This document shows, piece after piece, positions 3,605-50,049 of a DNA stretch of 50,049 nucleotides (positions are counted from its first letter, which is position 1; each line of letters opens with the position of its first letter). This stretch comes from a virus (taxonomy: Duplodnaviria > Caudoviricetes). A program made the position numbers and the translations under genes. The notes beneath the pieces were generated by a model. The model had not been told where the DNA came from, ran no database searches, and worked only from the letters and a program-made list of their open reading frames with translations. The stretch lies in IMG/VR virus record IMGVR_UViG_3300045912_000109, positions 1 to 50,049 of that record; one strand, written 5' to 3'.

Positions 3605-4623
3605 GCAAAACAACCAAAGTCACTGGCCTCTTCGTTAAGAGAGGAGCAAAAGAAGAAATTGCAAAGCGTTCGGAGTATGCCGACTGGAAAGCCGGGAAGC
3701 TCACGAAAGAACTCAAAGCGCAATTCACAAAAACCCAAGTGTCGCAACTCTTGGCGATGGTGGAGCGCGATGAAGCCCTCGACGAAGAGAACCCTGATGA
3801 GTTCTTCAAAGCCTACGAGAGCATTAAAGCTGACTTGGCTCGTGCGGCAGAGCACTTTGAAGCCGAAGCTCTGGCAGAAGCGGAGGCGAAAGCCAAGGCC
3901 GAGGCCGAAAAGCAGGCGAAGAAGGGCAAAGAGTTGGCCCTTGTTGAGTCCGTCAAAGAAATCCAATTCGGAGAGGCGTATGCCAAGTTCACGAAGAAGT
4001 TTGATCTTGGCGAAAACATGAACCAGTGTGTTCCAAGGGGCAAAGTCACCGAGGAAGATTTGGTGGGTGCGTTGGCCTTGGGCTTTGGTCTGGAGAACAT
4101 GAGCCAGTGGGTCATTGGAGACATCGTTTGCGCTCTTGAGAACATGGGTTACGAGAACGTGGTTATCGCAGTCTGCGAACGCTTCAAGAAGGCGTATCCT
4201 ACTGTGTCCGGCTACGCTCGTGTCAGCCGCCATGTTCCCGTTGAGAAGCGGGATTCTTCTATCCCGTTCACGGTCTACCGGGAAATTGCCAATGCCCGGT
4301 TCAGCGAGAGCGATGACAAGAACCTGCAGACCATGCACAAACTCATTGACCGTGCTGTCAGCGAGGGCTGGGGGGCAGGCGATGCTCGCTCGCATGTTGA
4401 GGCCGAGCGCGGGGTGAAGAAAGACGACAAAAAGCCTGGATTGAGCTTGTTTGTCGTGAGCCTCGATAACCCGGTGACTTCGTATTTTACTTCGGAAGTT
4501 CCGAAATACAGCGAAAGCACTCTGATCGTTGACCTCAAAGCCAAGAAGTTCTTGGAAAAGAAGGGCAACAAAACTGAGTGGTCTGAGTTCTTCTCTGACG
4601 AGTCTGAGAAATCCTCGTCCTGA
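3601..4623 (+). CDS. Putative DNA-binding protein with LmbU-like domain
   Basis: QWVIGD...YPTVSGYARVSRHVPVEKRDSSIPFTVYREIA...AVSEGW resembles the LmbU-type pattern; N-terminal coiled coil. Confidence 0.55.
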   Translation: MSKTTKVTGLFVKRGAKEEIAKRSEYADWKAGKLTKELKAQFTKTQVSQLLAMVERDEALDEENPDEFFKAYESIKADLARAAEHFEAEALAEAEAKAKAEAEKQAKKGKELALVESVKEIQFGEAYAKFTKKFDLGENMNQCVPRGKVTEEDLVGALALGFGLENMSQWVIGDIVCALENMGYENVVIAVCERFKKAYPTVSGYARVSRHVPVEKRDSSIPFTVYREIANARFSESDDKNLQTMHKLIDRAVSEGWGAGDARSHVEAERGVKKDDKKPGLSLFVVSLDNPVTSYFTSEVPKYSESTLIVDLKAKKFLEKKGNKTEWSEFFSDESEKSSS

Positions 4624-4682: not shown

Positions 4683-6329
4683 TTATTGTTCGGTCGTGAC
4701 GGGGGAGACGGTGATTGTAGGATCGACGTTTCCGTCCATCAGCAAATCGATTCTCTTGAGTTTTTCATCAAGAGCAGCGCAGATAGCCTCTTCAATTCCA
4801 ACTCCCGCCGCATAGACGATATACTGGAACGAGGGAGACTTTCCTCCTTGCCGATGAACTCTTCCCAATACCTGCTTGAGGTCCATAGCGGACTCACAAG
4901 GGGAGATAAGGGAGTGGCGAGGATGATTGCCGTTGAGGTCTTGAAGGTTGATGCCTTCTTTACACGCTTGGGTAATACCAACGATGCAGCGGATGTCGTC
5001 CCGCTGAAAGGCGTCGATGAAACCTCGGCGTTCCTCTGGCTTTTGTGAGCCAACGATGAACCCGCATTTCCCTATTTTCTTCGTAATCGTATCGACCACG
5101 AATTGCAGGGACTCACGAAAGTTCATTGCGATGAACACGGAGTTGCCTTCTTCGATGAGATCAAGCGCAATATCCGCGATGCCGGGAGCTTTGTGAAGCT
5201 CGATGGCGCGGCGCGTCTTGATTCTCTCCGCAAGTATTGCTCCCGCACGGTCTGCGGCAGGGATTGACTCGTAAATCTCGTTGACTCTCTGTTCGAGTTC
5301 TTCGTATTCCGAGGCAATCTTTTTGCCGTTCTCCATGTCGAATGCCTTTGCGTGAATAGTGGTCTCTGGAAACGCATCCCCCAAGTCCTGAACGCGAAGG
5401 CGCGTTCCATACTCGGGGAATATGTGACTGTGAATCCGCTTTAGTGCGGACTGCGATCCGGAGAAAAACAGCCCGAACTTACCCTCTTTGACTCCGTGAG
5501 CTTTGAGGAACTGGAAGTATGTTCGCCCTCCTCTGTGGAGATTGCACGCTCTTCCAATCTCTGCGAAGTTCATGGGAGTCTCCGCTATCGTAGCCGATAG
5601 TCCCATAAAGGGAACGTGCTGGTCGATAGCAGCCCTAATGAGCAGGCTGTTCAGGGTTCCCATCGTTTTTGCTCGATGGATTTCATCGAAGATGACGATG
5701 GTGTTTTCTGGAATGTGCCACTTGAAACCGCGAACAGCCTTTGAGCGAGGATTTGCCTTCTCCTCGGTCTGCTGGCCGAACTCGGTTTTACCGAGCTTCA
5801 TCCATTCCCACCCATAGACGCCGACGACATCGACACCGACGGCGTTAGCCGCCCGATGCCAATCTGTGCAAACAGATTTAGGGCAGACGACGAGAACCTC
5901 TTTACCAAGCTCCCGTGCGATGAACAGAGAGATGTAAGTCTTTCCTACTCCGGTTGAGTGACCGAGGATATGGAAGTTGTGTTTCTGCATTGAGCGAACG
6001 CCGTATTGAACAGAAGTGATTTGATACTCAAGAACCATGTCTGGATACTTGAGTGGAACCAACTCGTGCTCGATGGACTTCACTTCTTCTTTGCGGGTTT
6101 CGGTGAAGACCCCGGCGGTCGATGACCAGTGATCGCATTGCCACTGGCCTTTATACTTTGAAACACGGACTCCGATTTCACGAAGTGCCTCTTTGTTTTC
6201 GCGGTAAAACTTCCAGAAATCCTCAGAGAGATCGAAGGATTTGCGAATCCATCTGACTCCTCCAGAAGTGTTCACTTGCATGGCTTGTCCGAAGACAACG
6301 ATTTCTTCCAACTGTTGTAGTAGTGTCAT
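4683..6329 (-). CDS. Superfamily 2 (SNF2-like) helicase/ATPase
   Basis: Walker A STGVGKT, VVCPKS, DEIH, LSAT, EGINL, QVLGRVHRQG. Confidence 0.9.
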   Translation of the reverse strand: MTLLQQLEEIVVFGQAMQVNTSGGVRWIRKSFDLSEDFWKFYRENKEALREIGVRVSKYKGQWQCDHWSSTAGVFTETRKEEVKSIEHELVPLKYPDMVLEYQITSVQYGVRSMQKHNFHILGHSTGVGKTYISLFIARELGKEVLVVCPKSVCTDWHRAANAVGVDVVGVYGWEWMKLGKTEFGQQTEEKANPRSKAVRGFKWHIPENTIVIFDEIHRAKTMGTLNSLLIRAAIDQHVPFMGLSATIAETPMNFAEIGRACNLHRGGRTYFQFLKAHGVKEGKFGLFFSGSQSALKRIHSHIFPEYGTRLRVQDLGDAFPETTIHAKAFDMENGKKIASEYEELEQRVNEIYESIPAADRAGAILAERIKTRRAIELHKAPGIADIALDLIEEGNSVFIAMNFRESLQFVVDTITKKIGKCGFIVGSQKPEERRGFIDAFQRDDIRCIVGITQACKEGINLQDLNGNHPRHSLISPCESAMDLKQVLGRVHRQGGKSPSFQYIVYAAGVGIEEAICAALDEKLKRIDLLMDGNVDPTITVSPVTTEQ

Positions 6330-6383: not shown

Positions 6384-6434
6384 CAGACTTCTTCCCCCCA
6401 CTATCGTTTCCGATAGCGAGGGGAAGCGTGTCTG
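6384..6434. repeat. Intergenic ~50-bp hairpin unit, copy 1
   Basis: CAGAC..CTTCCCC..CTATCG-TTTC-CGATAG..GGGGAAG..GTGTCTG. Confidence 0.85.
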
Positions 6435-9697: not shown

Positions 9698-10651
9698 ATG
9701 CCTGAGAAAGTGAAGCGATGGGATTGGCCGTTGGCCTTTAGTTTGTATTGCGCCGGGATGGGGCCGAAAGAGATCGCCAATCTTCCCGAGTTTCGCGGGC
9801 TGTCGGAGAAAAGCCTTGCTAACGCCATTGTAAAGCAGGGATGGGCGAAGGCCCGAGAGAAGCACCAGATGGAGCGAGCGGTTTATCTCACGAGCAATCT
9901 GCAAGAGGCCCGGAAGGTGGCGATAGAAAAGCATTACAAGTTCCTGCTGCAAGAGGTAGAGTTAGAGCGAAAGGTGATAGAGCAGCGGGTGAAGACCGGG
10001 AAGACGAATGAGCAGACCGCCCGGTTGGAGATATTGAAGCGATATGTTGAACTTGCAGAGAAGGCTTTAGGGATAGAGGGGGAGAAAACGGGCGATCCAA
10101 AACGTGATGGGGATCGCTGGCTGATTGCCATACAAGTCAATGGGGAATCTGTTCCCGTAAAAACGGCGGAAGAACAAAGCCCTACAAGCGGTTTTAATCC
10201 CTTATCCGCTATCGTGACCCTACCGACGATTAAAAACGCCGCACAGGGCCACGTAGAGCCGGGAAACGGCATGTCTGAAACACATCACAAAGCCGACAAT
10301 GAACAAAACCCCGAAAAAACGCCGGACTCCACCCACCAACCCGATGATTTTTTAATAAACCCACCCGCCGAAAACAAACAATATCGAAACAATAACCACC
10401 CCACACAAAAAGCCAGCCGACTCCCAGCAATCCCACCATTAAACGCAACCCCGGAAGAAATACTCTTCACCCACCGAGGAGAAGAACCACCCGATGAACA
10501 ACCTGCCGATGAACAACCGCCCGATGAAGAACTATCGGAACCGATAGTAAAACCAACACCACGAAAAACAAACTTCCCCATTCTCCGCCAAAGACCAAAA
10601 CCAAAAGGAAAATCATGGGGCAGACCCAAAACCCAAAACCCCAAAAAATAA
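9698..10651 (+). CDS. HTH protein, candidate terminase small subunit, with low-complexity C-terminal tail
   Basis: AFSLYCAGMGPKEIA...LSEKSL...KQGW HTH followed by helical oligomerisation-like segment; P/K/N/Q-rich tail with EEPPD/EQPAD/EQPPD repeats. Confidence 0.5.
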   Translation: MPEKVKRWDWPLAFSLYCAGMGPKEIANLPEFRGLSEKSLANAIVKQGWAKAREKHQMERAVYLTSNLQEARKVAIEKHYKFLLQEVELERKVIEQRVKTGKTNEQTARLEILKRYVELAEKALGIEGEKTGDPKRDGDRWLIAIQVNGESVPVKTAEEQSPTSGFNPLSAIVTLPTIKNAAQGHVEPGNGMSETHHKADNEQNPEKTPDSTHQPDDFLINPPAENKQYRNNNHPTQKASRLPAIPPLNATPEEILFTHRGEEPPDEQPADEQPPDEELSEPIVKPTPRKTNFPILRQRPKPKGKSWGRPKTQNPKK

Positions 10652-10658
10652 AGACACA

Positions 10659-10699
10659 AAAAAAGACCCGGCAGCTTACCGCCACCGGGCCTCTTTTGC
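10659..10699. terminator. Bidirectional terminator
   Basis: A-run, CCCGG...CCGGG stem, CTCTTTT between convergent genes. Confidence 0.6.
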
Positions 10700-10706
10700 T
10701 TCTGGT

Positions 10707-11537
10707 TCACTCCCCCTTTGCCTTGCCGGCTTTCTCAATCATGCGCTTTTGATTGCGCACGATTTCCAGTTCCTTCTCTTCCGCTTCACTCACGAAACGG
10801 AAACTGCCGCGCACCGTCAACGCCTTAGAAGCGCGGAAAGCATTCCGCAGCATGGCGGACACGTCCGACAGCGTGACCTTGCGGTCTGCCACCTGAGAGG
10901 CGACAAACTCGCAAGCCAACCGGCAGCTTTCCGCCGGAGACAGCTTGGCTTTTTCGTCCGACTTGCCGCCCTTGCCGCCATCGCTCTCTTTTTTCGGAGA
11001 GCGTGACTTGCTTTCAATAAAGCCGTCCGCTTCCGCTTTAGAGCGTAGCTGCTCCAACGCTCCGCTCCCCTTGTCAGAGTTAAGAGCATCAGTCAGCAAC
11101 GGGCGCGCTGCCTTGGTTTCAAGTAACGTTTTAAGGTTGCCCGATCCTAGACGGCTTCTTATCGCTTCGATGTGTCGCACGGGAAAACCGTTTTCCCGTA
11201 AGGCAATCGCTATCTTTCTTTCTTGGCCCAACTGGTGCGCCCGGCCTAAAGAGAAAGAAACGCTCACCCTCTCCTTAAAAGAGGGCCACGACTCATCAGG
11301 AACCAATGATGCCAAAATGGCGCAGTTGTCTTTGCCAGATTGGCACAATCGATCAAAATGATCGATGAGCGTGCAGAATTCGCCCTCTCCGCTAAGACGG
11401 GCTTTTTCAATGCGGCCCGTATCGTCAAACGATATATCTTTTAATATATCGTTAACACTCCGCGAATCAAGTGCGACTTCAGCTTTAGCGTTATTCTTGC
11501 GCTTTGCAAGTGTCTTAGTGTTTGTGTTTGTGTTCAT
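10707..11537 (-). CDS. Hypothetical basic protein
   Basis: 276-aa ORF; leftward TTGACA...TATCCT promoter near 11703-11730. Confidence 0.7.
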   Translation of the reverse strand: MNTNTNTKTLAKRKNNAKAEVALDSRSVNDILKDISFDDTGRIEKARLSGEGEFCTLIDHFDRLCQSGKDNCAILASLVPDESWPSFKERVSVSFSLGRAHQLGQERKIAIALRENGFPVRHIEAIRSRLGSGNLKTLLETKAARPLLTDALNSDKGSGALEQLRSKAEADGFIESKSRSPKKESDGGKGGKSDEKAKLSPAESCRLACEFVASQVADRKVTLSDVSAMLRNAFRASKALTVRGSFRFVSEAEEKELEIVRNQKRMIEKAGKAKGE

Positions 11538-11835
11538 TATTTTTCCTTTCTTGTTGCGTTTATCTTATCCCTGCCGCTATCGGAAACGACAGCGAACAAG
11601 CAAGAATAAGATTGCGCAACAAAAGGAAAGTGAACCTTTTTGTTTTGGGAAAGATCTGATGTTGGATTCTTGGTGGATAGAACCGAACCAGCCAACAGTG
11701 AGAGGATAGCAGAAACGTGCCTTGTGTCAATAGGTTTTTGCCCGGATTTCTGATAAACAAAAACCCGCGCTGGATTGCTCCAACGCGGGTCTGGCCGTCC
11801 CCGTCTATGTCTCCAATGCCTTTCGGCAAAAAACG

Positions 11836-12114
11836 TTAACGCCGTTTAATGTGTGCCGCTTTGCGGGCGGCGTCAGCGGTTTCTCCTATGGCCGAAAGCC
11901 AAGGATATTTTCCTTGGCAGTAGGCTACGACGCTGAAACGTAGGTAGTAGTAACTCCCATTGGGCAGCCGTGTTGTCCATCCAATAAGATTCCACAAGTT
12001 GCCCAGCCGGGGGGCGGTGAAAATGTCCTGCTCAGGATCGGGCAAGACTCCTAATTCTTTTAAGATTTTCATGGGTGTTACAGGCCTTTCACCCGTTCGC
12101 CCCGGAAGGTTCAC
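11836..12114 (-). CDS. Hypothetical protein
   Basis: ORF between a leftward TTGACA (~12204-12209) and a hairpin terminator (~11760-11790); start uncertain. Confidence 0.45.
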   Translation of the reverse strand: MNLPGRTGERPVTPMKILKELGVLPDPEQDIFTAPRLGNLWNLIGWTTRLPNGSYYYLRFSVVAYCQGKYPWLSAIGETADAARKAAHIKRR

Positions 12115-12259
12115 TGATCCCTACACGCGCCGGAGTTCCGCGCTTCGGGAACCTAGGCCAACCACAGCCTAGGTAGTTTCATTCTCGCCTATCCTGCGGA
12201 AATGTCAACAAAATACATGCCCGAACATATCAATTTTCCACTATCGGAGACGATAGCAA

Positions 12260-12776
12260 CGCAAGCCACCAGCACCAGCACCAAGGGAACAACGTGCCAG
12301 CACTAGGCCAGCGGGAACCAGCACCAAGATCAGAAACAGGCAAGCGGATCACCACCAAGGGAACCAACAACAAGGAATCCCTTTTTTCCAGCAGACACAC
12401 CAACCCACCACACCACCCATACCCCCCGGAGCCGGGAGGCTGCCAACGCTATACCCCCACCCAACGAAAAAAACCAACGAAAAAAACCCGCGAAAAAACC
12501 AGAGAAAAAACCCTTCCAAAACCACCCCCAAAGACTACTTCAAAAACCACCCTAAAAACCACCCCTAGAGACCACTCCTAAAGACCGCTCAGCAAGGAAA
12601 GCCTTACGAACCTCTGCTAGAGCTACTCTGCGGTTTATCTTTACGCGGGTGGGGGGAGTATCTTCATGCAGATACAGTAGGCGGTAGAATCTTTTTTGGT
12701 GGTGGTGGGGTGGTATTTTGTGTGGTGTTGTGTTTTGTGTGTGTGGGGTGGGGTTGTTTTGGTGTTGTGGTTATGG
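12260..12776. other. Non-coding low-complexity region with strand-skew switch (A/C-rich, then G/T-rich)
   Basis: AAAACCACCC-type runs to ~12590, then GGTGGTGGGG/TGTGTTTTG runs from ~12690. Confidence 0.8.
12631..12659 (-). repeat. Degenerate type I-E-like CRISPR repeat
   Basis: Minus strand ACTCCCCCCACCCGCGTAAAGATAAACCG: intact ATAAACCG handle, stem broken by GGG>AAA. Confidence 0.55.
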
Positions 12777-12867
12777 CGGCTCATCCCCACGATGGTGGGG
12801 AACGCGGCAGGCTCCGGGCTGCCAGTCCATGACCTGCGCGGTCCATCCCCACGATGGTGGGGAGAGC
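12777..12867 (-). CRISPR. Cas-less type I-E-like mini-array (2 repeats, 1 spacer)
   Basis: Minus strand GCTCTCCCCACCATCGTGGGGATGGACCG, 33-nt spacer CGCAGGTCATGGACTGGCAGCCCGGAGCCTGCC, GCGTTCCCCACCATCGTGGGGATGAGCCG. 29-nt repeats with CCCCAC/GTGGGG stem and 8-nt handle, as in I-E repeats. Confidence 0.88.
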
Positions 12868-12875
12868 GCAATGGC

Positions 12876-12904
12876 ACTTTCGCTGAAATTTTTGTTTTCG
12901 TCAA
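12876..12904 (-). promoter_or_regulatory. Promoter for the mini-array
   Basis: Minus strand TTGACG-17 nt-GAAAGT, predicted start 1-3 nt before the first repeat; A-rich upstream tract. Confidence 0.6.
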
Positions 12905-12982
12905 GAGATTTTTTTGATTTTTTTTCACTATCGTTTCCGATAGTTGGGTTGTGTGGGGTTTTGAAAAGCGGGGTGGGTGGTG

Positions 12983-13180
12983 TTATTGGGTTAGCTTTTT
13001 TCGGGCTTCTTTGAGGATATTGACACGCCTCTCGGCTGCCCGGTAGTTCTTGATTGCGCGTTGCAGTTTTTTTCGGGCTTTGCATTTCTTCCATTGGGCG
13101 CGGCGTATGAGGGAATCCAATCCCAACAGCAGATAAATGTCCGGCGTTTGTTTCTGTTGTGGGGATGAGGGGGTGTTCAT
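12983..13180 (-). CDS. Small basic hypothetical protein
   Basis: ATG overlaps the MTase stop (ATGA); MNTPSSPQQK... Confidence 0.5.
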   Translation of the reverse strand: MNTPSSPQQKQTPDIYLLLGLDSLIRRAQWKKCKARKKLQRAIKNYRAAERRVNILKEARKKLTQ

Positions 13181-13860
13181 TCGTTTGGGAAACAAAAACT
13201 TTGCTGCGCTGTTTCCCGATCAATCCGCTCGCAAGCTGCTTTGAAGTAGTCTTTGTCGATTTCGCAGGCGGTTAGGTGGAGTCGTGCATAGTGGCAGGCG
13301 ATAGCGATGGAGCCGCTGCCCATGTGGGTGTCGAGGATCGTCTGACCCGGCTTGGCGTAGTTTGCCAGCAGCCATGAGTAGAGCTTAACTGGCTTTTGCG
13401 TTGGGTGGATGCGATTTTCCCCCATAGGACGACATGCGTATTTTTTGACAGGGCTTTTGAAACTCGTCCACGCAAGTTCCGCTGCTGCTAAAGAAAACTT
13501 GTGCGGCTGCTGTTTGTCCCATATCAGCCAGCACGGGGAGTTTAGCGGCATCATTTCGATGAAGTGGTTTGCACCCCACACGATTTGATTTTTTGAAACG
13601 CGCTGGAGTTCGGTAAAGTATTTTTGATCTGGTGGCTTAGAGTCCCAATCTTTTTTTGCCTGCTTCTGTCTTACAGGATTTGCCGCCATTCCGATCCCAT
13701 AAGGCGGATCAATAATCGCCAGATCGAAGTGTTTGTCAGGATATTCTGCCATGAGTTCCATGCAGTCCATACAACGGATGTCCAGAAATTCCCGGACAAA
13801 TCGATTGACCGGATGCTTGCCAGCGTCCACGTTGGCTATTGATTGCGTTTCTTGCTTCAT
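13177..13860 (-). CDS. DNA N6-adenine/N4-cytosine methyltransferase (beta class)
   Basis: DLAIIDPPY, HPTQKP, LDTHMGSGS, CEID. Confidence 0.92.
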   Translation of the reverse strand: MKQETQSIANVDAGKHPVNRFVREFLDIRCMDCMELMAEYPDKHFDLAIIDPPYGIGMAANPVRQKQAKKDWDSKPPDQKYFTELQRVSKNQIVWGANHFIEMMPLNSPCWLIWDKQQPHKFSLAAAELAWTSFKSPVKKYACRPMGENRIHPTQKPVKLYSWLLANYAKPGQTILDTHMGSGSIAIACHYARLHLTACEIDKDYFKAACERIDRETAQQSFCFPNE

Positions 13861-13899
13861 TGTTTGTCCTCCGGCTGTGAGTCCCGTTTGGCGTTCAAA
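13791..13899 (+). repeat. Degenerate attC-like site A
   Basis: CCCGGAC-AAATC-GATTGACC...GGC-GTTCAAA; interior shares ~35 bp with site C. Confidence 0.5.
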
Positions 13900-13929
13900 A
13901 TTCCACCCATTCAAGCATAGCGTCTGTGT

Positions 13930-14307
13930 TCATTGTGCTGGAACCTCGAAAACGTGGTGTCCCCCTCGCCGTGAGCTATGCCAATAGCACGGCCAGAAAC
14001 AGGGATTTTGTCGAAGGGCGTTAATGATCTCCTCGTTGCCGGACCATCCCCCCGTGGAAATGCTATATCGGACAACTGGCCTCTTTAGGTCGTTCTCGGT
14101 TTCTTCTACTCTCCACCCCCAATCGGAGTATTCCCACGCGCTTTTGATAATATCGAACACTTCGTGCGGGTGCATGACGTTGTCCAGTGGCATGTTTTTT
14201 AACCATGAAAGAAAATCCTCCGACGGATAACCTTCTTCATCCAGAAGCTCCCCGTTGAAGGGCTCGAATGGTTGTTGGTCTTTTTGCAAATCCCGTCCGT
14301 TTTTCAT
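13930..14307 (-). CDS. Hypothetical phage protein
   Basis: LDEEGYPS...STGGWSGNEEIINAL...RGGHH; coupled by ATGA overlap. Confidence 0.8.
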   Translation of the reverse strand: MKNGRDLQKDQQPFEPFNGELLDEEGYPSEDFLSWLKNMPLDNVMHPHEVFDIIKSAWEYSDWGWRVEETENDLKRPVVRYSISTGGWSGNEEIINALRQNPCFWPCYWHSSRRGGHHVFEVPAQ

Positions 14308-15098
14308 AAAGGCAACACTTCTTGCGCGAGACGCCGAACGGCTATCTCAAAATACTTTTGTTCCTTTTCAATACCGATGTATCCACGTCCTTCCAGCTTG
14401 GCTGCAAGGCATGTCGTCCCGCTTCCCATGCACGGGTCAAGCACCGTATCTCCGGGGTTTGTGTAGGTTCGCACCATGTAGCGCATAAGTGCGAGCGGCT
14501 TCTGCGTTGGGTGCAACCCGACCTCACAGTTGAACTTCTGCCACGATGACGGAACACGCATTTCTGGGAGTTTCTGGTGGTCGCGCCCTTCAAACTCGCG
14601 GTAGTTGTCCGACTGCGAGCGGAACGCTACTCCGTATTTCACACGGTCAGCCCCGCCTCCCGTCCTTTCCTGCATTTGTTTGTTGTATGTCCACTTCTTT
14701 TCTGCAAACACCAGCACAGATTCATGCTCCTTCATTGGCTCGCGCACCGTGTTTGCAAAGTTGCTACCACGATTTTTGATCCATATCCATTCATGGCGGA
14801 AACAAGGCAGATTGCTCATAACCATACGGGATGCGAAAGGTTGGCTCGCAGTCGTTACCACTGCACCACGGCACACGCGCATTGCTTCCACCCACCACGC
14901 TTCCACAGGAAACGGTGTGTCCCACTTGTTGCTTGTCATCCCATACGGCAAATCCGTGATGATTGCATCCACCGATTTGTCCGGCAGGGTTTTCATTACG
15001 TCTAGGCAATCGCCAAGAATCAAATCACTTTTTGCGCGATCCACCAAATGGCTGCCCGCCGTCACGCTGGCTGCTGGATTAGTTTTTTGGTCCATCAT
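14304..15098 (-). CDS. DNA N6-adenine/N4-cytosine methyltransferase (beta class)
   Basis: GDCLDVM, ITDLPY, HPTQKP, LDPCMGSGTT, GIE. Confidence 0.92.
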   Translation of the reverse strand: MMDQKTNPAASVTAGSHLVDRAKSDLILGDCLDVMKTLPDKSVDAIITDLPYGMTSNKWDTPFPVEAWWVEAMRVCRGAVVTTASQPFASRMVMSNLPCFRHEWIWIKNRGSNFANTVREPMKEHESVLVFAEKKWTYNKQMQERTGGGADRVKYGVAFRSQSDNYREFEGRDHQKLPEMRVPSSWQKFNCEVGLHPTQKPLALMRYMVRTYTNPGDTVLDPCMGSGTTCLAAKLEGRGYIGIEKEQKYFEIAVRRLAQEVLPL

Positions 15099-15134
15099 TT
15101 TTTCTCAGAGTTTTGGTGATCTTGATCGTTAGCG
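15038..15134 (+). repeat. attC-like site B (R'' box lost)
   Basis: L'' GATCCACC (8 nt) ... L' GGTGATC (7 nt), 6 nt, R' GTTAGCG. Confidence 0.65.
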
Positions 15135-15839
15135 AAATAGGGTCGCAATAACATCAGCGTCTTCCGGTTTGCTTTCAATATCTCCAAGACTGACCGATTT
15201 TCCCCACACCGAAACGCTTATTCCATTCTCGGTGTTTTGTATCGAACAGAATCCAGCACTCGTCACTGGTTCATGGTATGATCCCGCCGCCGCCTTGTGC
15301 GTGATTGGGTCGTTAAAAATCATTGGGAAGTCCTCTCCGAATATGATGTATTTTGCTTGCATAGAAATTTTCTGTGTTGCAGAGCACGTTTCCGTAAGGG
15401 ACTGCTCCTCTTGAACGTTGGCTACCCCTAATCGCCGCCTAACCCTGAGCGGAGCTTGGTCTAGTTTAGCGAGAAAGTTTTCCGCCGCTCTTTCGATTGT
15501 TGAACCGTATCCGTATGGAATTTTTTGCGCCCACTGAAATCTACCTTGCGCTTCATGCTCTATAGTAAATGCCCATCGAAAATCCTCCCTGCCGCCGTTT
15601 CCGGTTCCTCGGCAGATATACGGTTTGCCGTATTCAGCCGCTTTTTGAACTGCTGATACTGCTAATTTACTTCGCTGGACAATTTGGCATATTTCCATCA
15701 ATTCGGATTCTAGGAGCCTCAACCCATGATTATTGTGCAAATACTCCCATAATTCGTATAAATACGAACTGCGAACAATGCGATCCACCGAATAGCTGCC
15801 CTCCGTCACGCTGGCTGCTGACTTCGTTTCTTGCTTCAT
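15129..15839 (-). CDS. Hypothetical protein, probably a fusion of two cassette ORFs
   Basis: Starts with shared leader MKQETKSAASVTEGS; internal linker ANVQEEQSLTETCSA precedes a second Met (MQAKYIIF). Confidence 0.65.
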   Translation of the reverse strand: MKQETKSAASVTEGSYSVDRIVRSSYLYELWEYLHNNHGLRLLESELMEICQIVQRSKLAVSAVQKAAEYGKPYICRGTGNGGREDFRWAFTIEHEAQGRFQWAQKIPYGYGSTIERAAENFLAKLDQAPLRVRRRLGVANVQEEQSLTETCSATQKISMQAKYIIFGEDFPMIFNDPITHKAAAGSYHEPVTSAGFCSIQNTENGISVSVWGKSVSLGDIESKPEDADVIATLFR

Positions 15840-43808: not shown

Positions 43809-46800
43809 ATGGAAACTTTGCTGCAAGAAACAGATGTCGATATAACGAGGTTCCCCAACCTCAGTAAGACCGACGAAGAAATGGATGAGTATGATCGCAT
43901 CCAGCAAAGGATTGCGAGATACAACGAAGCTCTTGCGGTAAGAAGTGGCTACAAAGACGAGGGGAAGCCGGAGGGATATTCTGATGAGGCATGGACGGCA
44001 CTTCGGCGCGGGGGTGAGCAGCTAAAGATGATGCTCTATGCCGGGGCTGCGGCTGCTGGAGAAATAACTGGAGCAAAGAGCCTTCAAGACTGGGGAGAGA
44101 CAGAAGCTCTTCGTAAGATCGATGAGATCAACAAGCGGTTTGCCCCGTCGGTAAATAGCTTCATGGACGTTCCGGGGGACAGTGTTGGGCAGACATTCGA
44201 CAACGCATTTCGTTATCTCCTGAGCGCAGCAGGAGAGACAATTCCCACAATGATACCTTCCCTGATTGCTGGGGCAGGTGCTGGGGCAATCGCGGGACAA
44301 GTTGGGAAAAAGGCTCTTGTGGCAAAAGCGACCGAACAGCTAACGAGAAACCTTACTGCAAGATACGGCCAAAGAAAGGCGGGGGAGATGATTGCCAGAC
44401 ATGCGCTTAACATAAAGCGCATTGCGGATGCAGCGAATGCGGGGAATGTTCGTGCGGCCCAAATGATGGGGGCATTTGGGGTGAATTACCCGTTGGCGGT
44501 TGGAGAGGTTTATCAAGGGATGATGGATAGCGAGGAGGGAGCATCAGGCGCACTGGCGTTTGGTTTCGGAGTTCCATTCGCTGCACTTGACACGCTTCCA
44601 GAAGTGATGGCTATCGACAAACTGATTGGGCCGGGAGCCGGGAGAAGATTCGCCAAAACGTTTGCAGATCGAGCAAAGATTGCCGGGATTACAGATTTGC
44701 AACTTGCCCTATCAGAGGCCGGAACAGAGGTAGCTCAAGAAGTTATCGCAAAAGCAGCAGCGATGATAAATGATCCGTCGAAGAAGTTCACGGATCAGGA
44801 TTTCGTTGAGCTTGCAGACGTTGCGATTAGAACCTTTATCGGAATGGGATCAACTTTTGGTGCGGCGGCGGGGCTTCGCCAAGCGGTTATTGCTCCAAGC
44901 TCGGACCCAAGAGTAAATCAAAAACAGTCAGAAATTGAGCGGAAGGCGGCAGAGATGTCTACGCCTTTTGGCGCAGCAGGGATCATCAATGAAGAACGAC
45001 AGCGAGGAACTGGCAGACCCGAGGCTGAAATTATTGCCGATCAAGCCCGGCTCGAAAACGAAGAGGCTCAACTCCGCAGGGAATTGGAAACCGCGCAAGA
45101 AGAAGAAGCTGTCAGGATTAGGGCCAGCATCGAAGAGATTGAAAGAAGGAAAGCTGACAATGCTGCCGAGCTTACAAGACTACGTAATCAAGACGGCGGA
45201 AGGTTTGGAGAGGCAGAGGGCAGTCAGCTACAAGAAGATGGAGCGGAGGCTGAAAGAGGCGCGGAAGAAGGAGCGTCACCAGAGTTTGCTGCAAAGCTGC
45301 AAGCAGTCACATCCCGATTCATGGCTGGGAGAACTCGCTCGCCGGATGAGAGGCAGAGAGGCATATTACAAGAGATCGCTCGCAAAGAAATTGCCCGCGA
45401 TAAAATCGCGGAGCGGCTACGTGCCTTATCAGAGCGGCCCGAACAGGCATCACCCGCAGAAGATGCCGAATTTAGTGCGCTCGCCAAAACCGAAAAAGCA
45501 TTGGGAACGGACATCGCAGAGCTTACTGCTTCGCTTCGTATCGACCCTAGTGAAACGAAGCCCATCCGTCGTAGCAAGTCTCCCGCCGTCCCTGCGTATC
45601 TGCGAGACAATCCCTTCTCCCGCCCTCGTTACGAAGTTAAGAAGAGCGAGATCGATGCAATCATTGACGGAGCACGAGAGAGCGATCCTAGAGATGCACA
45701 AACAAAAGAATGGCTCAAAGAGGCTATTGACCAATACATTCCCTTGATCGACGAGCTTGGAGTCAAGGTGGAATATGGTAAGACTGGCCGAGCCGGATAC
45801 AACTATCAGACCAACGCAATTCTACTTCCAAGCCCGGAGGAATACAGAAAAGCAGCTTCATACGGCAAGGATGACTTGTCGAAGATCATCGAGGAAGAAG
45901 CCATTCACGCGGCCCAATTCAAAGCCTTGCGGGATGAGTTTGATGCTTCCAAGGACACAAACTTTGGATCATTTCTCAAGAAGAAAATCGACAGGCTTGT
46001 TGAGGACATTGAGCGTGCTGACAGCGACATCCTCAAGAAAATCGCTCGTGGCTATATTGGGCCGAGGGCCAAGGTAACTGACAACACATCGAGGACTCAA
46101 CTTTACATTGAGTTTGAGAGGGCAGTTATTCAGAGGATGCGGACTGGCCAGCTTACCGAAGATTTGCGAGCGGCTAAGAAAGAGGCGCAAGCAGGGTCGG
46201 CGGCGGCGAGAACATTTATTGATTCTGTGCTTGAGGCTCTTGAGCGATACCGGGCAGCTATTGTTCGGTTTATTAACCGTGCAACATCGCCGAAGCGCAT
46301 TCAAGAACGGCTTAAGCAAGTCAACGCAATTCTTGATGAGTTTGGGATCATCAATCGTCCGACTCAGTTAGATTCCACTATCGTATCCGATACCAATGAG
46401 AGCAACATTCCGACCGGGCAGAGAGAACTTCAACGTCAAGACCAGCAAGAAGAAGCTGGCGGCACCGCGCAAAACCAGAAAACCCAACAAGAGCAAAGTC
46501 TGCCGCAAGAAGAAGGTCTAGTATCATCAGCGGCGGATGATGGGGGAACCGCAACCACCGCTACGGCGAGAGTTGACCAGCAAGACGCTCGTTTCAGCGA
46601 ACTGACGGCATCTATCACACCGGACACCGACCTTGAAGTGTGGAAAGCCGAGAACCCGGAAGCGTATGCCGAGCTTAAGAAGATGCGGGAGAAGGTGCTT
46701 CGTGAGGCGGGGTATGATGTGGGTCCGGTAATTCATCAGACGAACGCTTCAAATTTCACAGAGTTCGACATTGGTAAGGCTAGAAATACCGGACGTAGCA

Positions 46801-49800
46801 AGGTGGGGTTCTTCTTCACCGATAATCCCGATGTTGAGTATGGCAGGAATACCATTAACGCATTTCTCGAATCCAAGGAACCGCTTACCTTCGACTCTTT
46901 CAATGCTTTTGACGAATGGGCATCACGCAACGAAACATCCTTCGGGGATACGGCGTCTTTGAGGTCTGTCTTGCGTGAAAAAGGTTATGACAGTATAGAG
47001 ATCAAAGGTAAAACCGATGGTTTTGAGCAGACGATCACCGTCGTTCTGGACCCATCCCAAATCAAATCCGCCGAGCCGCTGAACCGCGACGAGAACGGCA
47101 ACTTGATTCCGCCTTCCCAATGGGCTAACCCGGAGAGTGACAGTATTCTCTTCTCTCCTGAGCAACAAACTGAGACCACGCAAGACGAAGCTCTTGCAGA
47201 AATAAATCAAATTGGCACAGACCAGCTTACCAAGTCACTGTTGGGCTTTGCGGAAGAAATGGAAGGGAAGCCGCGTAAGCGAGTATCGCAAGCATCGTGG
47301 GCGTATAAGCTGGGTGCGGCGATCAAATACGACAGTCAGACAAACAAAGAGTCTTTTGAGAAAGCGGCAAACTACATTCGTTCTCGTGGGATTCTTAAAG
47401 TCATGCGAACTTTCGCAAACGACAGATCAAGTATTCCTCAGACGCTCCAAAACATCATCGGCCCGGCTCTAAACGCATACTTCGATACCTTTGCAAGCAT
47501 GGCGCAGGGGCTTGATAGCGTGGCCTCGCTCCCGGCAGACCAGAGGCTTGAATTGCAAAGCGAGATTACTTCGCTCGCTCCAAGGTTAAATGCCTCTGGA
47601 TTCAATAATGCTTCCGAAGCTGGGAGGGCATTGCAGATTCTCAAGAAAACGCAAATCTTCGCAGGAAAGTGGGATCGCATGGCCACTCTTGAAAGAATGC
47701 TTTCTCCTTACATCAAGAAACTTGAGAAATCCACAAGGGCCAACGTCAAAGACTTAGCGGTCAATCTGACGAGGATCGCTGACTTGGCTCAAGAAGAGGT
47801 AATCACGAGAGGGGAGAAGGTAAATGCGGCGATTGAGTTAATAAAACGGGCAACCGCTGACCCGAAGAAGTTTGTGCGCGGCAGCAAGGCATCAATGGCC
47901 AAGAACCGGGCTGCTCTCAAAGAGGCTATTGATCGAATCGTCTTTGAGGCATCGGACGCCATTCATAAGTTCGGAGGAGACGAGCACGCTTATCAGTTAG
48001 CCCGAAAGCTCAAGCACATTATTGCTCCGGTTCGCGGAGGAACTGATCCAGAGAAGAGCGTAGATGCAATGATTGTGAAGGCACTCAATGAAGTTTTCAA
48101 AGAGTCGCTTCGCATGGACCCGACCGGACCCAAGAAAGTCACGAAGACTGACAGTGTTCGCGCCCTCAATCTACTAAAGCAAGCTATCGGAAACGATACT
48201 CTGAAAAACCAGATTCTTGACAATCTAGAAAACCAAATCGCCGCTGGATATGCGAAGGGAAAATCCGACCCGCAGTATATTGCCGACGGCTACCCGCAAG
48301 CGTTTGAAGCTGCTAGGGAGAAGGACTATGCTCGCAGCGTTCTTGAGGGCGCGATGAAAGAGGCCGAGCAAAATCTCAACGTCATCGTGAACAAGCTGAT
48401 TGAGACATCGTGGGGCGCAGGGATGGATTCGATTGGCCAAATCAAAAGCTACTTCCGGGAAAAGCTGGGCGGCATTGCCAGCAAAGAAGTGATCGACAGG
48501 CTTGTGGAAGATGTTGACGCAACGCTGACAAAAAGAGCCATCCGCAGGCTTGAGGAGTTGGCTACATTCACGGTTCGAGTGAAAACTCCAGACGGAGAGA
48601 CCAAGACCATTACGCTTGAGGAATACTACTCCGATCCGGACTTCTACGAGCGGTTAAGTTCTTCTATCGGCGGGGCAAAGCTGATCCGTGGCGCGATGAA
48701 AGACGAAGACGGCATCCGCACGACTCTGAATCAAGTTGTGAAGATGGGGCGCACGCGCAAAGACAAATACGCAAATGCCATTGCGCAAAACATCATTCAA
48801 GAGATGGGCATCCCCGAGGAGTATGCGACAGCAATGCAGAACCTCATCGTAAGCGAGATCAAGTTAGCCGTCAAAGACCGCATGACTCAGAACATCAAGC
48901 GTGAGCTTGACAAGCTGGAGGAGAGCGCGAAGAAAAATGAAAGCTCGCAAGAGGCTCGAAAAACGATGCTTGACAAGCTGATAGAGTATGCTGCCTCTGG
49001 CTACTTGCACGAAGAGAAAATCTACGAGTCAATCCGCAAGGCTCACCCCAAGCTCAAGCTGCCCCCTTGGAGCATTGAGATGGCAGAGAAGATTGAAGCC
49101 CTTGGAGAAATCGCAGACACTTCGACAGGATTTCTGAAAGAGCGCGCTCAATCTGAGATCGTTAAAGAGATCGTTCGTTCTCAACCAATTTCAAAAGAGG
49201 AGATGGTGACTACGTGGTGGTATTACAGCCTTCTCTCTGGTCCGGCAACGACCATCCTGAACTTGGGTTCGTCGCTTCTAAACTCGTTCCTCAACACATT
49301 CTGGCACGCGATACAGAATCCCTCAAAATTCAGAATGACATTTCAGGCATTCATTGAAGGGATTAGGAATCGCGGGATTCCCGAGATGATGTATGCCCTC
49401 AAGACCGGGCTATACTCATCCGACTTGGACGCGAAGTATCCAATCATCTCAATTCTTGAAGCGGCAACGCCGGAGAGCCATCCTACTTTTTACAAAGTCA
49501 CTCGCTTTGGGGATATTCCGATTTTGAAATACACGTCTCCCGTCTATGTATTTCGGATATTGAAAGCCACAGACTTGTTGTTCAAGGGGGCGGCTATGGA
49601 GGCCCGGCTCGCCACCCTTGACGCAAAGATCACGCAAGCACAGAGAGAAGAAGCGCGAGCGCAAGCCATAGAAGAAATTGGCCCTGAGACAAAAGAAAAC
49701 AAGTTGGAGATTGAAAAGAGAACGAATGAGATAATCGACGAGAAAATTGCTGCGGTTAACTCATACGCATACCGTTCAGCCGTGCAAGACTCACGGCGAG

Positions 49801-50049
49801 CGGTGTTCACGCAGGAGCCGGAAGGGGTTATTGGAATGCTGGCAAGGATGATTGGCTCTTTGTCAGAAAGACAGCCAGCGATTAAAGCCGTTGTTCCTTT
49901 CACAAACATCGTTGCTAACGTCCTCAACGAACAGCTTAATTACACTCCGATTGGATTTGCCCGATACTATATGAGCGGGTTAAGCTCAAACGCTGAGCGC
50001 AAAGACTTCCTTGTGGAAAACGCGAACGGAGATTTTGTGCAGGACAAAA
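43809..50049 (+). CDS. Giant polyvalent / internal virion protein (~2,394 aa including 1-1071)
   Basis: ATG at 43809 (METLLQETDVDI...). The ORF track lists nothing in this frame, consistent with no stop before the window end, and it is in frame with base 1. Contains an ART-PolyVal-like domain and an EEAIH zincin-like motif. Confidence 0.88.
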   Translation, partial: METLLQETDVDITRFPNLSKTDEEMDEYDRIQQRIARYNEALAVRSGYKDEGKPEGYSDEAWTALRRGGEQLKMMLYAGAAAAGEITGAKSLQDWGETEALRKIDEINKRFAPSVNSFMDVPGDSVGQTFDNAFRYLLSAAGETIPTMIPSLIAGAGAGAIAGQVGKKALVAKATEQLTRNLTARYGQRKAGEMIARHALNIKRIADAANAGNVRAAQMMGAFGVNYPLAVGEVYQGMMDSEEGASGALAFGFGVPFAALDTLPEVMAIDKLIGPGAGRRFAKTFADRAKIAGITDLQLALSEAGTEVAQEVIAKAAAMINDPSKKFTDQDFVELADVAIRTFIGMGSTFGAAAGLRQAVIAPSSDPRVNQKQSEIERKAAEMSTPFGAAGIINEERQRGTGRPEAEIIADQARLENEEAQLRRELETAQEEEAVRIRASIEEIERRKADNAAELTRLRNQDGGRFGEAEGSQLQEDGAEAERGAEEGASPEFAAKLQAVTSRFMAGRTRSPDERQRGILQEIARKEIARDKIAERLRALSERPEQASPAEDAEFSALAKTEKALGTDIAELTASLRIDPSETKPIRRSKSPAVPAYLRDNPFSRPRYEVKKSEIDAIIDGARESDPRDAQTKEWLKEAIDQYIPLIDELGVKVEYGKTGRAGYNYQTNAILLPSPEEYRKAASYGKDDLSKIIEEEAIHAAQFKALRDEFDASKDTNFGSFLKKKIDRLVEDIERADSDILKKIARGYIGPRAKVTDNTSRTQLYIEFERAVIQRMRTGQLTEDLRAAKKEAQAGSAAARTFIDSVLEALERYRAAIVRFINRATSPKRIQERLKQVNAILDEFGIINRPTQLDSTIVSDTNESNIPTGQRELQRQDQQEEAGGTAQNQKTQQEQSLPQEEGLVSSAADDGGTATTATARVDQQDARFSELTASITPDTDLEVWKAENPEAYAELKKMREKVLREAGYDVGPVIHQTNASNFTEFDIGKARNTGRSKVGFFFTDNPDVEYGRNTINAFLESKEPLTFDSFNAFDEWASRNETSFGDTASLRSVLREKGYDSIEIKGKTDGFEQTITVVLDPSQIKSAEPLNRDENGNLIPPSQWANPESDSILFSPEQQTETTQDEALAEINQIGTDQLTKSLLGFAEEMEGKPRKRVSQASWAYKLGAAIKYDSQTNKESFEKAANYIRSRGILKVMRTFANDRSSIPQTLQNIIGPALNAYFDTFASMAQGLDSVASLPADQRLELQSEITSLAPRLNASGFNNASEAGRALQILKKTQIFAGKWDRMATLERMLSPYIKKLEKSTRANVKDLAVNLTRIADLAQEEVITRGEKVNAAIELIKRATADPKKFVRGSKASMAKNRAALKEAIDRIVFEASDAIHKFGGDEHAYQLARKLKHIIAPVRGGTDPEKSVDAMIVKALNEVFKESLRMDPTGPKKVTKTDSVRALNLLKQAIGNDTLKNQILDNLENQIAAGYAKGKSDPQYIADGYPQAFEAAREKDYARSVLEGAMKEAEQNLNVIVNKLIETSWGAGMDSIGQIKSYFREKLGGIASKEVIDRLVEDVDATLTKRAIRRLEELATFTVRVKTPDGETKTITLEEYYSDPDFYERLSSSIGGAKLIRGAMKDEDGIRTTLNQVVKMGRTRKDKYANAIAQNIIQEMGIPEEYATAMQNLIVSEIKLAVKDRMTQNIKRELDKLEESAKKNESSQEARKTMLDKLIEYAASGYLHEEKIYESIRKAHPKLKLPPWSIEMAEKIEALGEIADTSTGFLKERAQSEIVKEIVRSQPISKEEMVTTWWYYSLLSGPATTILNLGSSLLNSFLNTFWHAIQNPSKFRMTFQAFIEGIRNRGIPEMMYALKTGLYSSDLDAKYPIISILEAATPESHPTFYKVTRFGDIPILKYTSPVYVFRILKATDLLFKGAAMEARLATLDAKITQAQREEARAQAIEEIGPETKENKLEIEKRTNEIIDEKIAAVNSYAYRSAVQDSRRAVFTQEPEGVIGMLARMIGSLSERQPAIKAVVPFTNIVANVLNEQLNYTPIGFARYYMSGLSSNAERKDFLVENANGDFVQDK

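Follow-up and report, generated by a model that had tools for sequence, protein, structure and literature searches.

Does a phage in which no CRISPR-associated (cas) genes were found carry working arrays of short palindromic repeats that are clustered and regularly interspaced (CRISPR), and if so, whose proteins would process the products and against what would they be directed? This question is raised by two small repeat-spacer loci in IMGVR_UViG_3300045912_000109, a virus record (Duplodnaviria; Caudoviricetes) that is complete, has direct terminal repeats and measures 50,049 bases; it was analysed over its full length and is referred to as the window. The sequencing runs that contain this phage are labelled as hot spring or microbial mat metagenomes. 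One locus (array 1) had been described in an initial annotation; the other (array 2) is absent from it. We hypothesize that both arrays are real CRISPR RNA (crRNA) genes that run on the type I-E proteins of the host and act as a weapon against a GC-rich element that competes with the phage inside that host, a reading that we rank first at somewhat less than even confidence. It builds on the anatomy of the sequence, the lack of cas genes among those searched for, the likeness to type I-E arrays of Thermus and Deinococcus, and the variable length of array 1 in sibling phages.

Array 1 lies on the minus strand at 12867-12777 and consists of two 29-nt repeats and one 33-nt spacer, exactly as first annotated, down to the spacer string itself. 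The leader-proximal repeat (12839..12867, GCTCTCCCCACCATCGTGGGGATGGACCG, 29 nt) shows 2 mismatches to the array-2 repeat and would give the predicted crRNA its 8-nt 5' handle ATGGACCG. It is followed by the spacer (12806..12838, G+C 24/33) and the distal repeat (12777..12805, GCGTTCCCCACCATCGTGGGGATGAGCCG, 29 nt), which displays 4 mismatches to the array-2 repeat and an intact hairpin. The two array-1 repeats are the same at 25/29 positions, and differences from the array-2 repeat are confined to positions 2-4 and 25-26. In the distal repeat, the handle is changed at 2 positions, neither of which would enter a crRNA, and the same holds for the changes in the 5' tail of the upstream repeat; the parts from which a crRNA would be formed, i.e. 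the handle of the upstream repeat and the hairpin of the downstream repeat, are intact. The 20-nt repeat core (up to 3 mismatches) is present in 4 copies in the window, versus 0 in 100 shuffles. A candidate for a decayed sixth repeat at 12631-12659 was rejected, as its 11 mismatches are within chance (0-5 such matches per shuffle, 20 shuffles). The minimum-energy fold of array 1 is uninformative, because its two repeats pair with each other.

The repeat is 29 nt long, its stem (CCCCAC/GTGGGG) closes a loop of 4 nt and is followed by the octamer ATGGACCG at the 3' end, and the spacers measure 33 and 32 nt. This agrees with the architecture of type I-E repeats, in which a stem of 6-7 GC-rich base pairs encloses 4 loop nucleotides, an 8-nt 3' part comes next and spacers are of about 32-33 nt. 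The earlier assignment as a mini-array in the style of type I-E thus stands with respect to stem, handle and spacer length, and the array is part of a complete phage genome. In I-E systems, cleavage by Cas6e falls at the 3' base of the repeat hairpin, so that an 8-nt 5' handle is left. A "typical 8-nt 5' handle" is also mentioned in the preprint on Cracr RNAs (bioRxiv 10.1101/2024.10.29.618823).

Array 2 is located on the plus strand and comprises 39279-39368 and a degenerate repeat further on. Its first repeat (39279..39307, GTTTTCCCCACCATCGTGGGGATGGACCG), the hairpin of which is visible in the predicted fold, is followed by a spacer of 32 nt (39308..39339, G+C 14/32) and by a second repeat (39340..39368) that is 29/29 identical to the first. 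Next comes a spacer-like unit of 32 nt (39369..39400, G+C 12/32) that is 27/32 the same as the array-2 spacer and has no intact repeat after it. The two units differ at positions 2, 4, 5, 11 and 13; a synonymous-codon pattern was sought in these differences, and none was found. The degenerate fifth repeat (39485..39513, plus strand, 6 mismatches, handle ATGAACCG) stands alone, 116 nt past array-2 repeat 2, and stops 2 nt short of the ATG of a gene at 39516 for a protein of 309 amino acids (aa). Array 2 is co-oriented with the rightward block of tail genes. A promoter-like site on the plus strand (39134..39161, CTGACA-16-TATGGT) lies 118 nt upstream of it and is a match to the consensus only, at 9/12 positions. 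Between array 2 and the fifth repeat, a frame of 17 codons (39420-39473, ATG at 39420) with AAGGAG at a gap of 8 nt may encode a tiny basic peptide or nothing. Open reading frames (ORFs) that overlap the arrays have no family match.

Which proteins would use these arrays? Six-frame profile searches of the complete genome gave 0 matches for PF08798, PF01867, PF09344, PF09481 and PF07282. The description of the locus as cas-less hence holds for Cas6e, Cas1, Cas7e, Cas8e and the TnpB zinc-ribbon domain, with Cas3, Cas5e, Cse2 and Cas2 not searched. As a positive control, Thermus thermophilus was matched among 14 control genomes in each of these searches. With few spacers, no cas genes found and an I-E-type repeat, the locus has the structure of a mini-array. 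Since no cas genes were found, use of host Cas proteins is the natural reading, and most likely the phage borrows the CRISPR proteins of its host.

The relatives of the repeat point to the kind of host. When 72,556 plasmids were searched with either array, the best repeat-pair matches were I-E arrays of Deinococcota, with 18-19 records from Thermus and 2-3 records from Deinococcus. Stem and handle are identical to those of the I-E arrays of Thermus brockianus pTB1 (GTAGTCCCCACGCACGTGGGGATGGACCG) and Deinococcus gobiensis (GTGTTCCCCACAGGCGTGGGGATGGACCG), and the phage repeat departs from the Thermus and Deinococcus repeats in the loop and, within the 5' tail, at one or two bases (24-25/29 the same). 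A second array of pTB1, with the loop ACGC, lies directly after cas2e. That one plasmid has two I-E-type arrays with different loops is a hint, not a test, that changes in the loop are tolerated. For Thermus, the published I-E consensus GTAGTCCCCACRCRYGTGGGGATGGMCSD is described with 32-nt spacers and an AAG protospacer-adjacent motif (PAM), and the phage repeat fits this consensus at 24/29 positions (PMC6452258).

In all five phage repeats, the loop has the same variant sequence, or one close to it, that was not found in any other array searched; the exact 19-nt repeat core has 0 matches in other IMG/VR records. Because the loop variant is private to the phage among these arrays, one of the two loci is taken to derive from the other inside the phage lineage. 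A looser I-E repeat pattern is present at 51 IMG/VR loci, and 146 spacers from the I-E-like arrays there do not match the phage. Two of the virus records have arrays built on the repeat GTTTTCCCCACACGCGTGGGGATGGACCG, in which only 3 loop bases differ from the phage repeat: G001 (L041:5494-5768; 38.7 kb), with 4 spacers, and G002 (L067:3076-3409; 177.8 kb, terminal repeats present), with 5 spacers. These arrays resemble those of the window in 32-33-nt spacers, a degenerate last repeat and no Cas6e found in either record. Both records are unrelated to the phage by tblastx of the parts fetched, and their arrays have no match in phage records. The G001 array is flanked by a cI-like helix-turn-helix gene and an integrase gene, and G001 would therefore belong to a temperate phage. 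Both records suggest that cas-less arrays of this repeat family recur in phages. Separately, the exact 19-nt core of the phage was found as a solitary I-E-like repeat only in a metagenome contig of 3 kb (L083), unrelated to the phage; there a second such repeat, in which loop and handle are different, lies 84 nt further on, and both (2595-2708) precede a gene.

Is array 1 a fixed element or one that changes? Contigs of four runs were aligned to 10500-15500 of the window; the four runs derive from no more than two samples and two studies, and a sample that is possibly the source of the window accounts for three of the runs. The sibling contigs are colinear with the window on both flanks of array 1. 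In record 1 of run X3 (5,355 nt), window 12295-12777 corresponds to 3720-4168 and window 12871-13180 to 4740-5047, which leaves 571 letters between window 12777 and 12871 in place of the 93 in this genome. Record 4 of run X5, from the same sample, likewise has 571 letters versus 93, and record 7 of run X7 has 704 letters between window 12576 and 12871 versus 294. The boundaries of the variable segment fall within a few bases of the ends of array 1. A 35-letter piece that covers spacer 1, between joints at 12777 to 12804 and 12838 to 12871, is present in X3, X5, X7 and X8. One X5 contig shows a repeat, 5 aligned letters, 27 other letters and again a repeat, i.e. a second spacer of 32 nt. Judged from its length, the sibling array would hold about nine spacers. 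As the siblings have a longer segment and yet keep spacer 1, the locus is read as a CRISPR array of variable length.

The composition of the spacers bears on their source. Spacer 1 has a G+C content of 73% (24/33) and the 27 letters from X5 one of 78% (21/27), compared to 50% for the phage genome overall. Only 0.9% of the 33-mers of the phage are as GC-rich as spacer 1, and 0.4% of its 27-mers as GC-rich as the X5 letters. Because these values are far above those of the phage's own words, the array-1 spacers appear to derive from foreign GC-rich DNA and not from sibling phages. In line with the initial annotation, spacer 1 has no second match in the window with up to 3 mismatches, and no other site there with at least 22/33 identical positions or a 10-nt seed. 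The array-2 spacer has no match to the phage itself either. Compared with the array-1 spacers, both units of array 2 (G+C 14/32 and 12/32) are AT-richer.

As to expression, the initial annotation had proposed that array 1 is self-promoted, with a promoter starting at the first repeat, and this part is not upheld. A leader-like A-rich stretch (12868..12904, minus strand), conserved in sibling contigs (11 other letters over 12871-13180), does hold TTGACG at 12903-12898. The best -10 hexamer 17 nt after it, however, is GAAAGT, which reaches 8/12 to the consensus as read by eye, and a sigma-70 consensus scan of 12200-13300 gave 0 promoter-like and 0 terminator-like sites. Array 1 is co-oriented with the leftward gene block upstream, which includes two DNA methyltransferase genes. 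With no consensus promoter, the same direction as the upstream minus-strand genes and no predicted terminator between, transcription of array 1 by read-through from the methyltransferase block is the simpler assumption.

On this basis, the following course may be proposed, in which we infer transcription, processing, loading, host and target from sequence features. Transcription of array 1, on the minus strand, would take in the leftward block with its two DNA methyltransferase genes, and host Cas6e would cut the transcript after each repeat hairpin. The resulting crRNA of about 62 nt would start with the 8-nt handle AUGGACCG, continue with the 33-nt spacer and end in a hairpin tail of 21 nt. 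Loaded into host Cascade, it would steer Cas3 to foreign DNA inside the host, be it a GC-rich mobile element that competes with the phage or something else. The host most likely would be a hot-spring bacterium with a Thermus-type I-E system. Several features together suggest an array that is in use, with turnover as in ordinary CRISPR arrays: where the base changes fall, spacers of canonical length, a private loop common to both loci, the presumably foreign GC-rich spacers and the length variation among siblings.

The use as a weapon is ranked first because of the analogy with virus mini-arrays, which are described as being used in interviral conflict (PMC6858448; PMC7099407), and with Thermus Lalka phages, the array spacers of which are reported to match Thermus integrative elements (bioRxiv 10.64898/2026.04.20.719267). 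As in the virus mini-CRISPR arrays described by Faure et al. 2019 (via PMC7099407) and Medvedeva et al. 2019 (PMC6858448), one or two spacers lie between host-type repeats, no cas genes were found and use of host Cas proteins is presumed; siblings that coexist in the same environment are a further likeness (PMC7099407; PMC6858448). On the other hand, the phage repeats are identical to those of no known host array among those searched, in which they may depart from the mini-arrays as described (PMC7099407). Likewise, no spacer match to related viruses was found here, and the 73% G+C of spacer 1 argues against a sibling as its source. Also different from the published accounts (PMC7099407; PMC6858448) are the presence of two arrays per genome, the much longer sibling array, the bacterial I-E type and the setting in a hot-spring phage seemingly without an integrase.

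Several results weigh against this use of the arrays. The initial annotation had predicted a host array with this repeat, and as stated this could not be borne out: relatives with the same stem and handle exist in Thermus and Deinococcus, and the exact 19-nt core is in no array, neither among 185,579 species (one genome per species; 14 single non-array matches, most plainly inside reading frames) nor in the metagenome collection (22 single matches). The comparison of the spacer with viral sequences, also suggested there, yielded no protospacer. For the spacers of either array, none was found in IMG/VR, searched with whole spacers or 19-20-nt parts, or in the loci fetched; the 50,697 phage records gave only chance-level matches (E>=1), and the 72,556 plasmids, including those of Thermus and Deinococcus, only chance-level pieces at the sensitivity of blastn. 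The repeat-spacer nature of the extra sibling sequence was seen directly for one unit only. The near identity of the two array-2 units looks like duplication, not acquisition. No tyrosine integrase was found in the phage genome; hence the phage may be virulent, which would leave little time for crRNA-guided interference with a co-infecting element. The G+C content of Thermus is far above the 50% of the phage. Among relatives of the 309-aa tail-region protein (204 distant loci in IMG/VR, of which 80 were kept), 0/80 have I-E-like repeats within 6 kb of the homologous tail gene, from which the arrays would be a recent, lineage-specific gain. Finally, array 1 adjoins two methyltransferase genes, a counter-defence kind of gene, and this fits an anti-CRISPR role as well.

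Such a role is the main rival, which we consider unlikely, though it has to be taken seriously. The arrays would be made early and in bulk, and their hairpins and crRNA-like products would either soak up host Cas6e or Cascade subunits, as described for RNA anti-CRISPRs (Racr), or guide Cascade to repress a cas promoter or a CRISPR-guarding toxin, as described for Cracr, thereby protecting the phage from I-E immunity. Inhibition of I-E systems by phage-borne repeat mimics has been reported (PMC10651486), and Cracr arrays of two or three units that act against I-E systems have been described, the last repeats of which are degenerate and the spacers of which target the cas loci that related strains carry (bioRxiv 10.1101/2024.10.29.618823). 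The arrays of the window resemble these systems as phage-borne I-E repeat mimics with a comparable number of units, a degenerate last repeat, no cas genes found and possible competition with the crRNAs of the host (bioRxiv 10.1101/2024.10.29.618823; PMC10651486). The composition of array 2 (two related spacer-like units, then a degenerate repeat), the position of array 1 beside the methyltransferase genes in a variable region, the missing integrase and the lack of a protospacer in any mobile-element collection searched are all compatible with such a function, and the GC-rich spacer 1 would suit a chromosomal target in the host.

However, the spacers are of canonical, full length (32-33 nt), not shortened to 21-24 nt as in the I-E Cracr example tested in the preprint (bioRxiv 10.1101/2024.10.29.618823), and the units are built as repeat-spacer-repeat, not as solitary repeats. 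A solitary-repeat Racr, defined by no spacer-repeat partner within 100 bp, was accordingly rejected for both loci; only 39485-39513 stands alone. Much longer sibling arrays at the same site fit ordinary gain and loss of spacers better than a fixed regulator, and the differences between the array-2 units sit in the PAM-proximal part, where the match of a regulator should be kept. No recognisable acr or aca gene is nearby. Any abundant phage crRNA would compete with host crRNAs, so that a weapon and an anti-CRISPR role are not exclusive.

A further-reaching proposal, which we regard as doubtful, is that a probably virulent hot-spring phage keeps a CRISPR memory of its own. Array 1 would gain and lose spacers via the adaptation machinery of the host I-E system and be served by its Cas6e, Cascade and Cas3, with GC-rich spacers aimed at host-side mobile elements or at the host itself. 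Array 2 would add late crRNA-like RNAs, and the whole I-E pathway of adaptation, expression and interference would be parasitised. A parallel is the Cas12r-CRISPR of the Lalka phages, in which sibling arrays vary and have one shared spacer in common, and which is described as lacking adaptation genes, with host I-E Cas1-Cas2 suspected (bioRxiv 10.64898/2026.04.20.719267).

It appears improbable that the arrays are passenger DNA, i.e. pieces of a host array left by recombination or mispackaging that drift without function. The single spacer of array 1, the degenerate ends of the flanking repeats, the lack of a conserved promoter and the absence of repeats from 80/80 distant relatives would agree with this view. 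Drift does not account well for two separate loci, each co-oriented with the local genes, nor for the distribution of base changes: hairpins and crRNA-forming parts are intact in 4/5 repeats, changes sit in dispensable ends, and the array-2 repeats are 29/29 identical versus 27/32 for the units. Moreover, the loop variant is private to the phage lineage and not copied from any array in the collections, and the locus is kept, and longer, in sibling phages.

Could the arrays serve an effector of unknown family encoded by the phage, comparable to the Cas12r-CRISPR of the Thermus Lalka phages, in place of host I-E proteins? We consider this very improbable. It is true that many phage proteins have no family match, and that the Lalka arrays share the hot-spring phage setting, 29-bp repeats, 32-33-bp spacers and a similar start of the repeat, GTTYYYCCC (bioRxiv 10.64898/2026.04.20.719267; PMC11437467). 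The Lalka arrays, however, are reported to lie 15 bp after a gene for a TnpB-like effector and to have a repeat unlike Thermus repeats, whereas the phage repeat has a hairpin and handle of the I-E type, unlike the Lalka consensus (bioRxiv 10.64898/2026.04.20.719267; PMC11437467). A Lalka-type Cas12r locus was rejected, as no TnpB-like gene was found anywhere in the phage genome (zinc-ribbon PF07282, E<=1). Neither array has a large gene next to it; upstream, the closest ORFs are of 70 aa and 154 aa, the latter with one weak tail-fibre match (E 5.4e-4). For an ORF of 410 aa beside the G002 array, neither a family nor a solved relative was found, nor a homologue in the phage. Scarcely credible, finally, is that the repeats serve the phage itself as sites of Cas6e-dependent RNA processing or of recombination, e.g. 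to cut a late transcript ahead of the tail gene at 39516 or to provide homology for an exchange with arrays of the host: the fifth repeat does stop 2 nt before that ATG and recombination between repeats could also yield the length differences among siblings, but array 1 is tied to no gene start, 0/80 tail-gene relatives have such a site, and the canonical spacer lengths are left unexplained.

The surroundings of the arrays add some further observations. DNA methyltransferase gene 1 (13177-13914, minus strand) and gene 2 (14304-15098, minus strand, with relatives at 84-91% identity in several collections) lie upstream of array 1. In the siblings, the methyltransferase gene at 13180-13939 is missing, with 53 letters in place of 758; the neighbourhood is thus an accessory, variable region. 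A basic reading frame of 70 codons (12983-13195, minus strand, no family match) directly upstream of array 1 is kept beside it in sibling contigs; it may encode a small regulator or have an anti-defence role. The palindrome CTATCG-N4-CGATAG at 12928-12943, upstream of array 1 and here not counted as a part of it, is indeed genome-wide, as the initial annotation had noted, with 28 sites in the window (up to 1 mismatch) versus 0.02 expected. Sites include 6401, 7264, 7819, 8366, 9453, 12928 and 16945, many of them intergenic in the leftward block, and those at 6401, 7264, 7819 and 8366 have longer flanking inverted repeats (cagac..gccgc / gcggtgtgtctg). The palindromes may be operators, processing sites or terminators. 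On the other side of array 1, the stretch 12400-12770 is of low complexity and strand-asymmetric: it is first C/A-rich, with six A-tracts (12455-12565) phased at 12-13 nt, and then G/T-rich at 12690-12770. It resembles bent DNA or an origin, and sibling contigs have deletions of 12-13 nt at 12478 and 12543.

Other recognisable genes of the phage code for helicases, a replication initiator, an exonuclease, an endolysin and tail-fibre proteins; the match to a terminase is weak. A terminase search gave no close relative in IMG/VR and only remote phage matches elsewhere, and the 309-aa tail-region protein has no match among isolated phages. Homologues of helicase, endolysin and methyltransferase, as well as a comparison of protein clusters, yielded no usable host taxon. 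Rfam and tRNA scans of the window found nothing, and no RNA datasets with the phage are listed among the sequencing runs checked. The tail-fibre genes are followed by an open frame (43809-50048) that spans at least 2,080 codons and is cut off by the 3' end of the record.

Virus arrays without cas genes are already known. What goes beyond the ordinary here is the presence of two loci in one phage, a Thermus-type I-E repeat with a private loop, and length variation between coexisting siblings. In our judgement, which is not based on a systematic survey, well-documented bacterial cases with a canonical I-E repeat, two loci and length variation among siblings are few. Cas6e and Cascade of the Thermus-type I-E system are biochemically tractable, and the case allows a clean test, within such a system, between a weapon against rivals and an RNA anti-CRISPR. 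If the array does grow inside phage genomes that lack cas genes of their own, a parasite would be making use of the adaptation enzymes of its host, a use that has been proposed, tentatively, for Thermus Lalka phages (bioRxiv 10.64898/2026.04.20.719267).

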